From positions 1,408,001 through 1,472,000 of the forward strand of contig OZ242221.1 in assembly GCA_965206845.1 (NCBI GenBank): DNA of 64,000 nt, in the 5' to 3' direction. Both the position numbers and the translations under genes were made by a program. The notes below the pieces were generated by a model, which was given only the letters and a program-made list of their open reading frames with translations, did no database searches and was not told where the DNA came from. Origin of the DNA: Cenarchaeum sp. (GTDB lineage Archaea > Thermoproteota > Nitrososphaeria > Nitrososphaerales > Nitrosopumilaceae). Below are positions 42,123 through 48,003 of this stretch, in pieces (positions within the stretch are counted from its first letter, which is position 1; every line of letters starts with the position of its first letter).

Positions 42123-43548
42123 TAGTTAGTTTCACAACATTGTCTTCTACCAAGGCATCACCGCCTCAAGCAGGCTATCCCGCATGCCAGACTCCCAGAG
42201 GCCAACAGAATTCAAGCTGATGGTTGATTGTTTTAATCCGAAAAGTACTAGGATCAGATCAACGGTGTCACATCCATGGACAAAACCGGGACAGGCCCGA
42301 CCAAACAGAAATCGCGACTGAAGATAACCCACGCCCAGAACGACGCCAGGTACGTGGAGATGGGAAAGCTGCTGCATCTGACGAAGGATCCCAGCTCGGA
42401 CAGGGAGCTTGAGGGCATGAACATGAACAAGAACGGGCGCCCCTACAGTTACCCCGACACCGTCATAATGTCTATCGCGGGAATACGGGCCATTCACGGC
42501 CCCCTGCCGTACCGCATGTGCCAGGGAATGGCCGAATCGGCCCTAGGCGAGGAGGATGCCCCTGACCATGTCACCCTGTGGCGGAGAATAAATGCCATGG
42601 AGATACGGCAGGAAGACAACATAACCACGGTCAGGAACGGCAACGACGTTCTCTGCCTGATACCGGACGCCACCGGGCTGGCACCGGCCACGCGAAGCGA
42701 CTGGATACACCACAAGCACAGGAAGGCGCGCGGGTTCATCAAGCTGAGCGTCATGATAAACCAAGAGACCCGGGAGATCCTGGCGTTCCGCGTAACGGAC
42801 GAGCGGAAGGGCGACTCGTCCCAGTTCAAGGATCTGGTGGACGGTTCGCTGGAGGCGCTCGGCCTGGATTCGGAGAGCCTCAGGGCGGGGGTCCTGGCGA
42901 AGGGGGCAGCCAATGCACAAGGTACCGATGCCGCGGCGGCCGGGAGTCGCGCCGAAAGATCCGCAGCGGGAGGCACGAGGGCCACAGACACCGCGGGATC
43001 CGCAGAACGGTACGGCATGCTGCCTTTCTGCCCTGCAATGCATGCCGGAGGGCAGTCTGTGATAGAGCTGCGGGCAGATGCCGGATACGATACGAGGCAG
43101 ATATTTGAATACTGCAAGAATCTGGGAATAGTGCCGCTCATCAGGATAAAGAAGAACGCCAACAGCAGAGCCGGCGGGGTGGGCAGGACGCGCGGCCTGG
43201 CCGCCCAAGATCAGCTGTGCGGTAGCGATCCCGGCCCGAAAAGACTCGCCGCGCTGGACGAGTGCGAGCGCGTCCAGAACCAGAAGGACTGGAAGAGGCG
43301 GGTCGGCTACGGCCGGCGGTGGCTGGTGGAGATCGTGTTCTCGTCGCTCAAGCGGATGTTCGGCGGTTCCGTGAACGCGGTAAAGATGGAAAACATCGTC
43401 CAGGAGATCGCAATAAGGATCAACATGTACAACAGGCTGTTGGCGGTGGCACGGGAGGCGATCGCAGGAGCATGAACGTAGAGTTGTCGCAAGCGCCCGC
43501 GCTTGGATCAAGGAGGTGCCATTAAGACCTAGGTTGTGAAACTAACTA
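42123..43548 (+). mobile_element. Complete IS5-family element (transposase 42276-43475)
   Basis: Perfect 16-bp TIR TAGTTAGTTTCACAAC; 8-bp duplication CAGTTTTC (42115-42122, 43549-43556); PDATGL, ADAGYD and RWLVEIVFSSLKR motifs. Confidence 0.95.
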
Positions 43549-43588: not shown

Positions 43589-44758
43589 TTGAGGGTTAAC
43601 ATAACTACAAAAAAGTCTAGGCATTCTGGAAAGTTTGGAAAGCTTGTCCTTGATGACGGCACGGTCATGGATGGGATGGGCTTTGGTGGTTCGGCCACCG
43701 TGTTTGGTGAGATCGTGTTCAATACAGGAATGGTGGGGTACACCGAGACCCTCACGGATCCCTCCTACAACGGCCAGATTCTCATGCTTACGTACCCCCT
43801 TATAGGAAACTACGGAGTTCCGGATCCTGCAGCAAAGGACGGCAACGGTGTATCAAAGTACTTCGAGTCCTCCAGGATACAGGCCAGGGGGCTTGTGGTG
43901 CACGAGCTGTCAGATACGGCAAGCCACTGGAACTTGGAGATGACTCTGGACGAGTGGCTCTACCGCGAGCACGTTCCCGGGATCTCAGGCATCGACACTA
44001 GGGAGCTTACAAAGAAGCTGCGCACCGACGGAGTCCGGATGGCGGCACTGGCGGTATCTGACGAGGCGATAGATACAGCAGATCTGCAAAGACGGCTGGA
44101 CTCAGCTCCAGGCTACGACTCGGAGCAGTTCATGGATGCGGTATCTGTCAAGTCACCAGAGGTGTACGGCACCCGGCCCGAGTCGGTGGTGGTCATCGAC
44201 ACCGGGGCAAAAAATGCAATAATGAGGAACATCATCGACATCGGCTATAAGGTGATCAGGGTGCCATGGAATGCAACTGTGGAGGAGGTGATGTCGTACC
44301 GGCCCCGTGGAGTGGTGATAAGCAACGGTCCGGGCGATCCGCAAAAGTGTCCCGATACGGTGCGGACGGCGAGGGCCCTGATCGAGAGGAACGTGCCCAC
44401 GCTGGGAATCTGCTTAGGCGCGCAGATAATGGGCATTGCGGGCAACGCCCACACCTACAAGCTCAAGTACGGCCACAGGGGGCAGAACAAGCCGTGCATA
44501 AACCTGGACAACGGCCAGGTGTACGTGACCAGCCAGAACCACGGATACGGGATACTTCCCGAGTCGCTTGAGGACTCGGAGTTTGACTTATGGTTTACAA
44601 ACGCAGACGACAAGACGATTGAGGGAATAAGGCACAAAAACAGGAACTGCATCGCCGTGCAGTTCCATCCCGAGGCATCACCCGGACCCTACGACTGCAA
44701 GTACGTCTTTGAAGAGCTCAGGCACCTTATGGGGGAGGAAAAGGCTGCCAAGGAGTGA
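43589..44758 (+). CDS. carA: Carbamoyl-phosphate synthase small subunit
   Basis: GEIVFNTGMVGY, SNGPGDP, GICLG and QFHPEASPGP motifs. Confidence 0.97.
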   Translation: MRVNITTKKSRHSGKFGKLVLDDGTVMDGMGFGGSATVFGEIVFNTGMVGYTETLTDPSYNGQILMLTYPLIGNYGVPDPAAKDGNGVSKYFESSRIQARGLVVHELSDTASHWNLEMTLDEWLYREHVPGISGIDTRELTKKLRTDGVRMAALAVSDEAIDTADLQRRLDSAPGYDSEQFMDAVSVKSPEVYGTRPESVVVIDTGAKNAIMRNIIDIGYKVIRVPWNATVEEVMSYRPRGVVISNGPGDPQKCPDTVRTARALIERNVPTLGICLGAQIMGIAGNAHTYKLKYGHRGQNKPCINLDNGQVYVTSQNHGYGILPESLEDSEFDLWFTNADDKTIEGIRHKNRNCIAVQFHPEASPGPYDCKYVFEELRHLMGEEKAAKE

Positions 44759-47700
44759 ATCGCTAAAGAAGATTCTTGTTCTGGGCAGCGGGGCAATAAA
44801 GATCGGAGAAGCCGGCGAAAGCCGCCAAAAACGGCCGCCAGTTTGACTACTCCGGTAGCCAATGCCTCAAAGCCATCCGGGAGGACGGACTGAAGAGCGT
44901 TCTGATAAATCCGAATATTGCCACCATACAGACGGACACCAGGTTTGCAGACCGGGTGTACCTCCTTCCGGTGACGCCCGAGTACGTCGGATCCGTGATA
45001 GAGAAGGAGCGCCCAGACGGAATCATGCTGGCATACGGCGGACAGACCGCCCTGAACTGCGGCGTCAAGCTGCACGAGGAGGGTACCCTTGACAGATACG
45101 GGGTGGCAGTGCTTGGAACGCAGGTTCCCGGGATTCAGCGTACTGAGGATCGGCAGCTCTTCAAGGATTCCATGGTGCAGTGCGGCGTGCCGGTGCTCAA
45201 AAGCAAGACGGTCACAAGCTTTGTCCAGGCAGCTGCAGCTGCCCGGGATCTGGGATATCCCGTAATAGTCCGCGTGGCCTACACCCTTGGTGGCAAGGGT
45301 GGCGGCGTGGCATACAACGAGATCGAGCTGCACGAGATAGTCGAGCGCGGACTCAAGGCAAGCATGGTGGGACAGGTTCTTATCGAGGAGTATGTCGGCG
45401 ACTGGAAGCAGATCGAGTACGAGGTCATCCAAGACTACGCAAGCAACGGCGCCATCATCTGCAACATGGAGAACGTGCTGGCCATGCGGGTTCACACCGG
45501 GGACAACATTGTCGTGGCGCCATCCCAGACCATAGACAACCACGAGTACCATATGCTGCGCTCAGCGTCGCTGCGGGCCACAAAGCATGTGGGAATTGCG
45601 GGCGAGTGCAACATCCAGTTTGCGCTGGATCCAGACTCGGACGAGTACGCAGCAATAGAGCTCAACCCGCGGCTGTCCCGCTCATCGGCCTTGGCAAGCA
45701 AGGCGACCGGATACCCGCTGGCTTACATGTCTGCAAAGATAGGGATCGGCTATACCCTGCCGGAACTGGTAAACAGCATCACCCAATCCACCACCGCATG
45801 CTTTGAGCCGTCACTTGATTACGTCGTGTGCAAGCACCCCCGGTGGGACTTTGCAAAGTTTGAGCTGGCAAAGAGAAATCTGGGGCCCACCATGAAGTCA
45901 GTGGGGGAGGTGATGGCGGTGGGCCGTACCTTTGAGGAATCCCTGCAAAAGTCGATACGCATGCTGGATATGGGATACGACGGCCTTGTACTCAACCGCT
46001 CCGGCGAGGCGGCATACGACGAGGAGGATCTGGAGGAGAAGCTGTCACATCCCGACGACCGCATACTGTTCCACGTGGTGTCGGCGCTAAAGAAGGGCTT
46101 TGACACGCAGCGAATCTGCCGGCTGTCGGCCATCGACGCGTGGTTCGTAGAGAAGATAAGAAACATCGTCGGGATCGAGTCTGGCCTGGCGCGGCCGCTA
46201 AACGGTCCCGGACTGCTGGTGGCCAAGAAGGCAGGCTTCGCTGATAGCCAGATCGCCAGGGCCACGGACAAGACGCCAAAGGAGATCCGTGACATGCGCA
46301 AGGAGTGCGGCATAACACCCAGCATCAAGCAGATAGATACACTGGCGGCCGAGTGGCCTGCCAAAACCAACTACCTGTATGCCACCTACGGCGGGGACGG
46401 CCACGATCTGCAGATACCAAAGGGGGAGCGGGGCGTGGTGGTCATAGGCGCCGGCCCCTACCGCATAGGAAGCAGTGTGGAGTTTGACTGGGGAACGGTG
46501 AACATGGTCTGGGGCCTGCAGGAGAACGGCATAAAGAACATCGCGGTGGTAAACTGCAACCCAGAGACGGTATCCACGGATTATGACATATGCAGCAGGC
46601 TGTACTTTGAGGAGCTTACCTACGAGCGGATCATGGACATTGCCGAGTTTGAGAACCCACAGGGAGTGGTCACCTGCGTCGGCGGGCAGACCGCCAACAA
46701 CCTGACCCCGGCGCTCGCCAGAAGCGGCATCAGAATACTGGGAACTGCAGCAGCAGACGTGGATCGGGCCGAGAACCGCTCCAGATTCAGCGCCGAGCTT
46801 GACCGCCTGCACATACAGCAGCCGCGGTGGCAGGCATTTACCAGCCTGGCAGACGCGAGGCAGTTTGCCCAGGATGTGGGCTTTCCTGTTATCGTGCGGC
46901 CGTCGTACGTGTTGTCGGGGGCCGCCATGAAGGTGGTCTGGTCCCGGGATCAGCTGAAGAAGTACATCAGGGATGCCACCGAACTCTCCCCTGACCATCC
47001 GGTGGTCATCTCCAAGTTCATGCTCAACTCCCTGGAGGTGGATGTCGACGGGGTCAGCAACGGCACCGATGTGGTAATCGGCGCCATAGTGGAGCACATC
47101 GAGAGCGCCGGAGTGCACTCGGGCGACGCGATGATGTGCATACCGCCTTGGCGCATCAGCAACAAGAACATCCAGACCATAACAGACCACGCCACAAGGA
47201 TCGCCAGAACGTTCAACGTTTGCGGCCCATTCAACCTGCAGTTCCTGATACACGACGACCACGTGTATGTCATTGAGTTGAACATCCGGGCCTCTCGCTC
47301 GATGCCCTTTGTCTCAAAGATGGTCAAGGTCAACCTGATATCCCTGGCGTCCCGGGCCATACTGGGCAAGCCGCTGCCGCAGGTGTCCGCAGACAGGTGG
47401 CACCAGATCCGCAACTTTGGAATCAAGGTGCCGCAGTTCTCGTTCATGCAGCTGGAGGGCGCCGACATATCACTGGGGGTCGAGATGCAGTCCACCGGCG
47501 AGGCCGCGTGTTTTGGCACCAGCTTTTACGACGCACTCTCTAAGGGACTGACATCCGTGGGATACAGCCTGCCGCGGGGGGGAACCGCCCTAGTCACGGT
47601 GGGCGGGATCCAAAACAAGGAGAAGCTGCTCCAGACCGTATCCCGGCTCAAGGATCTGGGCTTTAACATATTGGCAACAGAGCACACGGCAGAGTTCTTT

Positions 47701-48003
47701 GAGGAGAAGATGGGCAGGATCCAGGTGGCCTACAAGATATCCGAGCCGGATAGAAAGCCCAACATTGCGGATCTGTTGTACCAGCAGAAGATCGACTTTA
47801 TCATAAACATTCCCAGTACGTCAACCCTAGAGAAGTACCTGGGCATGCTTGATGACGAGTACCAGATAAGGAGAAAGGCGCTGGAGCTGGGAATCCCGGT
47901 GCTGACGACCATCGAGCTGGCCGACTCGTTTGTGAAGACGCTCGAGTGGCTGAAGCACAACAAGACCACACGGGAGCCGCTGGATCCATACGATCCGTTC
48001 TAG
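44745..48003 (+). CDS. carB: Carbamoyl-phosphate synthase large subunit in two exons (44745-44819, 44842-48003; 1078 aa if joined)
   Basis: Exon 1 (L/M)PRSESLKKILVLGSGAIKIGEAGE with putative CTG start after GGAGG; exon 2 FDYSGSQCLKA..NPNIATIQTD runs in frame into the 44956 ORF. Confidence 0.95.
44820..44841 (+). other. Candidate 22-nt bulge-helix-bulge/loop intron in carB mRNA
   Basis: AGCCGCCAAAAACGGCCGCCAG lies between codons GAA and TTT; central helix GGCG/CGCC, AAA bulge, inner stem GCCG/CGGC. Confidence 0.85.

Follow-up and report, generated by a model that had tools for sequence, protein, structure and literature searches.

A probable tRNA-type mini-intron of 22 nucleotides in the archaeal carbamoyl-phosphate synthase gene carB

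The pre-mRNA of cbf5 in Crenarchaeota contains an intron that was reportedly described by Watanabe in 2002 and Yoshinari in 2006, and the archaeal splicing endonuclease, EndA, cuts two bases after each strand of the central helix. We present here a window, i.e. a stretch of 64,000 nucleotides (nt) from Cenarchaeum sp., a sponge-associated archaeon of the ammonia-oxidizing type (contig OZ242221.1, positions 1,408,001 to 1,472,000), in which the carbamoyl-phosphate synthase gene carB is interrupted by 22 nt. These 22 nt are present in the DNA and, as supported by public RNA contigs, exactly removed from the RNA. With a probability of roughly 0.86 we take them for a tRNA-type mini-intron which, we infer, is cut by EndA and joined by the ligase RtcB. 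The cbf5 intron is also the subject of Yokobori 2009 (PMC2738675), whose Table 1, in the part of the article accessible to us, gives zero cbf5 introns for Cenarchaeum symbiosum and Nitrosopumilus maritimus. Going by the accessible text of that paper and of PMC7714728, cbf5 is the only known archaeal coding sequence with an intron of the bulge-helix-bulge (BHB) kind, and according to the same portion of the latter it was in 2020 also the only mRNA BHB intron reported, besides one in the 5' untranslated region (UTR) of HVO_1309 in Haloferax volcanii.

In the window, the universally conserved CarB motif GEAGEFDYSG is split after GEAGE by exactly 22 nt. Past position 44819 the frame of the first exon continues as SRQKRPPV and then runs into a TGA, which gives 33 codons when counted from the probable start at 44745. 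The second exon lies in the +1 frame relative to the first and contains the full CarB domain set, as identified by Pfam. Taking out the 22 nt restores both frame and motif to the form that is uninterrupted in insert-less relatives, as judged from translation and comparison. An earlier note, written from the letters of the window alone, had claimed this split in an otherwise intact gene as well as the premature TGA, and translation and Pfam bear it out on both points. The genome consists of a single 1.65-Mb contig with a completeness rating of 99.99%, and no second carB was found in it, the next matches being weak ATP-grasp relatives (E 3e-11 or worse); the earlier note had considered that an intact copy might sit elsewhere while this one decays.

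A single search of public runs turned up 14 that contain the stretch, four of which (X1, X3, X4 and X9) were aligned, in the form of assembled contigs. The records of X3 and X4, both from one study, give metatranscriptomic RNA-Seq as the type (X3 being a sponge metagenome), X1 belongs to a second study and is guessed to be RNA, and X9, whose type is unrecorded, is probably DNA; window parts without RNA contig cover carry no meaning in this comparison. In X1, X3 and X4 alike, the sole contig that crosses the site is the form without the 22 nt, with the gap at 44820 in every case. Record 3 of X1 (span 44621-44973) has no other difference over 331 nt, and record 6 of X3 (44301-44982) and record 11 of X4 (44789-45367) have 4 and 10 others, respectively. 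Expressed as contig depth at the site, the form without the 22 nt accounts for 4.81 out of 4.81 in X1, 12.3 out of 12.3 in X3, 5.61 out of 5.61 in X4 and 0 out of 98.7 in X9. The latter run has one contig that covers the whole stretch and retains the insert, which tells against the assembly artefact that the earlier note had envisaged. Since moving the gap by one base alters the joined letters, the mismatch-free gap at 44820 fixes the junction as GGCGAA/UUUGAC. This is the product GGC GAA/UUU GAC of the cuts AA/A and AG/U that the note had predicted. As a separate observation on X4, a second contig follows the window over 44789-44818, departs from it at 44818 and continues as the spliced or insert-less carB of a related strain, and more than one strain was therefore expressed in that sponge sample.

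The minimum-energy fold of the RNA around the insert (44796-44862) has an energy of -22.8 kcal/mol (z = -2.72), and 2 out of 200 shuffled sequences fold equally well. It contains the helices, the AAA bulge, the 7-nt loop and the outer stem just as the earlier note had drawn them. Present in it is the minimal HBh' motif, namely the central helix of 4 base pairs (bp), GGCG/CGCC, a 3-nt bulge and the adjoining inner stem GCCG/CGGC (HBh' in the terms of Marck and Grosjean). The RNA junction 44819/44842 lies 2 nt beyond each strand of the central helix. On the 3' side, the cut site is found within an asymmetric loop of about 7-10 nt, in the single fold as well as in the consensus fold, and this loop is closed by a distant exon-exon helix; because of this larger loop the motif is classed as relaxed, not canonical (for definitions of the BHB motif, see the accessible part of PMC5829648). 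The fold also pairs AAGC (44809-12) with GUUU (44841-44), a pairing that is not conserved in relatives.

Inserts at the same codon boundary are common among the relatives of this genome. We read 50 carB loci in full, i.e. our own, 29 from 60 relatives and 20 chosen from the remaining relatives, and found 17-30 nt at this boundary in 36 of them and none in the other 14. Most inserts measure 21 nt and bring an in-frame TAA, others shift the frame, and nearly all result in a stop or a frameshift. By a pattern search through the order (a tally that takes in a few unpublished genomes), an insert of 10-40 nt was located at this boundary in 263 out of 401 genomes. These were distributed over the families f1 (97/149), f15 (134/149), f10 (20/47), f4 (7/7) and f13 (1/3), together with the single genomes of f2, f8 and f11 (1/1 each). 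The pattern found no insert in the searched genomes of f5, f6, f7, f9, f12, f14, f18 and f19, although a miss by pattern does not show absence. The corresponding search through the phylum returned 39 out of 401 genomes, only two of which (G557 and G563, from two distant lineages) fall outside the order. Across the order, insert lengths range from 16 to 31 nt, and the loop sequence varies freely between families.

At the genus level the distribution is patchy, with the insert in 16 of 59 genomes of g13 and in 0 of 4 of g14. In its exon flanks the insert-less locus L067 is identical to the insert-bearing loci L070 and L071 of the same genus, which amounts to a precise genomic deletion, exactly at the predicted junction. 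Insert-bearing g13 loci resemble the insert-bearing loci of g17 and g22 only close to the site, from about 30 nt before it to about 60 nt after it; such short-range likeness fits a local constraint on the RNA and offers no evidence for or against horizontal transfer. Other irregularities of carB were also encountered among the relatives: the match in G028 comes in two adjacent pieces (residues 1-669 and 666-1051), and those in G007, G005, G038 and G047 each include one in-frame TGA, all of which may be further interruptions or sequencing errors.

An alignment of 36 insert-bearing sequences, 34 of them distinct, was scored against the structure proposed in the earlier note. In total, 94.7% of the alignment cells were paired, versus 21.8-49.3% when the partners were slid along the sequence, and 32 cells had changes on both sides, a number that none of 500 shuffles matched. 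In the inner stem, three of the four pairs change on both sides in 9-10 of the 34 distinct sequences, and in the central helix one C-G pair has become U-A in two sequences. The central-helix variants GGUG/CACY and GCGG/CCGC also occur among relatives. In the comparison that the note had proposed, the same-site inserts thus keep the helix geometry by compensatory changes. Its recurrence at one site, its covarying helices and its absence from RNA contigs confirm that the insert stands above chance.

The geometry can also be expressed as a positional rule, which was examined on the 43 distinct inserts among 70 stored loci, a hand-chosen set whose proportions are not meaningful as frequencies. Exon positions -6 to -3 pair with intron positions -6 to -3 at all four positions in 36 of the 43 and at three of four in the other seven, and 42 have an inner stem of 4 bp or more. 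The 5' bulge reads AAA in 29 cases, AGA in 13 and AGU in one. The last two intron bases are AA (29), AG (10), AU (2) or AC (2), and the base that follows is always U. With the cut register held fixed, an in-frame E/F junction results for all 43 inserts, whose lengths span 17-30 nt. The protein of G557 and G563 has GQAAE at this place, and because the exon codons there differ, the helix is GCGG on the exon strand and CCGC on the intron strand. Constraint on the RNA is also apparent in synonymous sites of the helices, which are nearly fixed in 48 insert-bearing loci and free in 22 insert-less ones. Third-position entropy is 0.34 versus 1.56 for the Ile codon, 0.29 versus 1.84 for the first Gly codon and 0.15 versus 0.98 for the Tyr codon, whereas the unpaired third base of the Ala codon is variable in both groups.

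Turning to the enzymes, we found two EndA paralogs (PF01974) in the genome, of 178 and 183 amino acids (107 and 77 bits, respectively), and one RtcB. The shorter EndA is closest to the crenarchaeal heterotetramer chains 3p1z_B (1e-40) and 2zyz_B (1e-36), from which the longer one is more distant. According to the accessible parts of PMC4090602 and PMC5829648, Thaumarchaeota have a two-subunit (alpha-beta)2 EndA, and relaxed motifs are cut only by the (alpha-beta)2 and epsilon2 types. Judging by these similarities, the genome would encode both an EndA of the type that accepts relaxed motifs and the ligase. We propose EndA and RtcB because the cut positions fit a BHB motif, because both enzymes are encoded and because the reviews assign such an EndA to Thaumarchaeota. 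In the primary transcript, GGCG of the first exon would pair with CGCC near the 3' end of the intron to form the 4-bp central helix. This would be followed on the 5' side by the 3-nt bulge AAA and the 4-bp hairpin of the intron, and the 3' cut site would be placed in the larger loop closed by the exon-exon helix AUCGGAG/CUCCGGU. The two-subunit EndA would then cut 2 nt past the helix strand on both sides, and RtcB would ligate the exons to GGC GAA/UUU GAC, yielding GEAGEFDYSG within a frame of 1078 codons. As unspliced translation halts after 33 codons, the cell's only carbamoyl-phosphate synthase would therefore depend on the tRNA-splicing machinery.

Several points weigh against this. The RNA evidence consists of assembled contigs, which drop rare variants and hide minor forms; the assignment of X1 to RNA is a guess and that of X9 to DNA a presumption. 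DNA may be present in RNA libraries, and a strain lacking the insert could in principle yield the same contig, but the contig of X1 is otherwise identical to the genome studied here. The 3' site departs from the canonical 3-nt bulge, and the strict hBHBh' form, in which a second such bulge leads straight into an outer helix, is absent. In 7 of the 43 distinct inserts a G-A mismatch takes the place of the outermost pair of the central helix. Finally, the role of EndA and RtcB is deduced from the motif, from where the cuts fall and from the fact that the genome encodes both enzymes.

Where the intron came from is a separate question, on which carB genes of other archaeal phyla have some bearing. 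Scanning public genomes for the pattern GQAGE, 12-42 nt, FDYSG returned 60 loci, of which 9 are in carB and 51 are chance matches outside it; the helix rule is obeyed by 8 of the 9 and by 1 of the 51. The nine come from archaeal records of metagenome-assembled genomes (MAGs), namely of Woesearchaeota, Nanoarchaeota, two labelled Methanosarcinales, one Promethearchaeota and one uncultured archaeon. In the Promethearchaeota MAG (L118:1501-1556), a 30-nt insert with an in-frame stop occupies the same carB boundary, with no central helix or inner stem in the common register. The two loci labelled Methanosarcinales (L085 and L108) have Woesearchaeota-like carB starts and inserts, and the insert of L085 equals that of L078, so the labels may reflect mis-binning. 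Directly upstream of carB, five of the nine (L102, L106, L111, L078 and L117) have an open reading frame (ORF) of homing-endonuclease type, belonging to two unrelated families, LAGLIDADG_3 in three cases and HNH_repeat in two.

It is possible, though we think it less probable than not, that the carB intron is the footprint of a mobile cassette. In this reading the highly conserved DNA coding for GxAGEFDYSG is the target of free-standing homing endonucleases from two or more unrelated families, and the tiny insert, spliced by the host, protects the cut site. As part of the same tentative proposal, the cassette would have spread between DPANN-type lineages, the order and other Thermoproteota, the ammonia oxidizers having lost the endonuclease and kept the intron over a very long period. 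Were this true, archaeal protein genes would have a general way of acquiring introns. In collaborative homing, of which phage T4 MobA and gene 60 are the type, a free-standing homing endonuclease is combined with a protective insert. The endonuclease ORF beside insert-bearing carB genes in five of the nine loci from other phyla resembles that arrangement, whereas no such ORF lies beside carB in our genome. There, neither PF14528 nor PF18780 was found anywhere in the genome, carA abuts carB, and in the 29 relatives read the end of carA likewise lies directly upstream of carB. On gene content, then, the present intron is an orphan and not part of an endonuclease cassette.

As to what splicing does for the cell, the earlier note had suggested a post-transcriptional switch. 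Arginine and pyrimidine synthesis would then be tied to the state of tRNA splicing, in the manner of HAC1/XBP1, a proposal that gained no support here and that we regard as very unlikely. The sole carB copy does need splicing, most lineages of the order have retained the intron even though it can be lost precisely, and the exon flanks are under constraint at the RNA level. However, a low rate of precise deletion explains the retention equally well, and many free-living relatives, as in g13 and g14, do without the intron. No unspliced RNA contig was seen in X1, X3 or X4, even if contigs can hide minor forms, and the free variation of the loop in sequence and length argues against any conserved binding site other than that required for cutting. 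We infer that splicing is constitutive, without a regulatory role; most probably the intron is a passenger of great age and close to neutral.

Slightly less credit still is due to the idea that another nuclease and ligase pair, unrelated to tRNA splicing, removes the insert, or that reverse transcriptase skips the hairpin during library preparation. The intron is indeed a stable hairpin of a sort that reverse transcriptase can skip, and its 3' site is not a canonical bulge. A skip should nonetheless have some microhomology at its ends to guide template switching, and there is none (GAA/AGC versus CAG/UUU). The junction is identical in three runs from two studies and takes up all contig depth there; it restores a conserved motif and equals natural insert-less alleles. 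Moreover, the position 2 nt past a 4-bp helix is held on both sides in 43 of 43 distinct inserts irrespective of length, as would be expected of the fixed-distance measuring of EndA but not of a skip.

That carB is a pseudogene, that the 22 nt are an assembly error or that ribosomes bypass or shift frame over them is suggested by the literal frame, broken after 33 codons, and has next to no probability in view of the 98.7-fold contig with the insert, the absence of another carB, the 3.2-kb remainder with all its domains, the 263 genomes sharing the insert and the lack of matching take-off and landing codons. Since the RNA lacks the insert, no bypass is needed, and programmed translational bypass or frameshifting was rejected for that reason. 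Two further candidates were set aside. A self-splicing group I or II intron has a ribozyme core of hundreds of nucleotides, versus only 22 nt here (Rfam gave no family match at 44650-45000, at E up to 1). An orthologous cbf5 intron is ruled out by the Pfam identity of the host gene as carB, the two being the same kind of element but different introns.

The features of the locus are collected in Table 1. On the plus strand carA is followed by carB, whose probable start overlaps the last 14 nt of carA. The CTG at 44745 is the sole start-like codon at the conserved carB N-terminus. Among relatives the aligned codon is most often CTG and otherwise ATG or TTG, which suggests that carB may use a CTG start or translational coupling.

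Table 1. Coordinates of the carA-carB locus and of the RNA elements around the carB insert, in window positions.
Feature	Position	Strand	Basis
carA, small subunit of carbamoyl-phosphate synthase	43589..44758	+	ORF list; Pfam CPSase_sm_chain 1.2e-48, GATase 1.7e-46
carB exon 1, 25 codons, LPRSESLKKILVLGSGAIKIGEAGE; CTG 44745 as inferred start	44745..44819	+	Translation; aligned codon ATG/TTG/CTG in relatives
Outer exon-exon helix, exon-1 strand AUCGGAG, partner 44850-44856	44802..44808	+	Fold; 92% of cells paired
Central helix, 5' strand GGCG (exon 1), 4 bp, partner 44836-44839	44814..44817	+	Fold; pairs kept in 94.9% of cells
5' bulge AAA, 3 nt; cut after second nucleotide (44819/44820)	44818..44820	+	Fold; RNA junction
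22-nt mini-intron (probable), missing from RNA	44820..44841	+	Contigs X1, X3, X4 without, X9 with; same-site inserts in relatives
Intron hairpin: inner stem GCCG 44821-24/CGGC 44832-35, loop CCAAAAA 44825-31	44821..44835	+	Fold; compensatory changes
Central helix, 3' strand CGCC (intron)	44836..44839	+	Fold; pair counts; positional rule
Relaxed 3' splice-site loop: AG, cut, UUUGACUA; cut 44841/44842	44840..44849	+	Fold; consensus fold; RNA junction
carB exon 2, 1053 codons and stop, starting FDYSGSQCLK	44842..48003	+	Translation; Pfam CPSase_L_D2, CPSase_L_D1, CPSase_L_D3, MGS
TGA closing the unspliced frame	44844..44846	+	Translation
Outer helix, exon-2 strand CUCCGGU	44850..44856	+	Fold; pair counts; synonymous-site analysis

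Two observations concern other parts of the genome. Directly upstream of carA, an ORF for a DDE-type transposase occupies 42276-43475 on the plus strand (PF01609, 2e-21). Outside the window, at about 107.8-113.4 kb of the same genome, an identical 45-nt stretch with identical flanks occurs at 107871, 110348, 111875 and 113402. The last three copies have a period of 1527 nt, and all lie inside very long open frames, which suggests a giant gene with tandem repeats.

Of the genomes sampled from the order, about two in three have the carB insert, and we take this order to be that of the archaeal ammonia oxidizers behind nitrification in oceans, soils and sponges. Such organisms would need their tRNA-splicing enzymes in order to make arginine and pyrimidines. 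In practical terms, carB will come out of gene callers labelled a pseudogene, frameshifted or truncated at the N-terminus, and such miscalls can give rise to false auxotrophy in metabolic reconstructions. The natural variants, with lengths of 16-31 nt, several helix sequences and precise losses, make up a ready series for studying what the two-subunit endonuclease requires, and the homing endonucleases associated with the insert in other phyla are relevant to the question of how protein genes acquire introns.

We also scanned the genome blindly for further mini-introns in coding sequences, by the rule of a 4-bp helix, a 3-nt bulge, an inner stem of 4 bp or longer and the joining of two long open frames upon removal. 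The 544 candidates were dismissed as noise of a G+C-rich genome with long spurious frames. Full-text literature searches, with most subscription journals outside their coverage, found no description of a carB intron.

Comparison with the known systems begins with cbf5. As that intron is portrayed in the accessible text on it, the two share their short length, their position inside an archaeal coding sequence, a relaxed BHB motif and their occurrence in lineages with a two-subunit endonuclease, as well as a patchy spread with gains or losses and a tendency to be misread as a frameshift or as two genes. They differ in that cbf5 encodes an RNA-modification enzyme and carB a metabolic one. The lineages differ too, as the carB intron is found in the order of mesophilic ammonia oxidizers and in DPANN-type MAGs. 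At 16-31 nt it is the shorter of the two, and its splicing is supported by public RNA contigs rather than by cDNA cloning or in vitro cleavage.

With the BHB introns of tRNA and rRNA, which are processed by EndA and RtcB, the carB intron has in common the 4-bp central helix, the 3-nt bulge cut after its second nucleotide and the inner hairpin. The size is also similar, as ARAGORN predicts inserts of 11-48 nt in several tRNAs of this genome; this predictor is noisy (its list includes a false 'tRNA-Pyl' with a 901-nt intron) and was used only for the short inserts. What sets carB apart is that the host RNA is an mRNA, that a larger loop takes the place of the second bulge and that the outer helix is built from codons. 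The 5' UTR intron of HVO_1309, as presented in the accessible portion of PMC7714728, is likewise a case, apart from cbf5, in which the splicing endonuclease acts on an mRNA. That intron sits in an untranslated leader, its host is a euryarchaeon whose enzyme is a homodimer, and it was demonstrated by knock-down and in vitro cutting, whereas the carB intron lies inside a coding sequence, where its removal is needed to restore the frame. Set beside these systems, carB would be the second case of a BHB intron in an archaeal coding sequence, a very widespread one, with direct RNA evidence.

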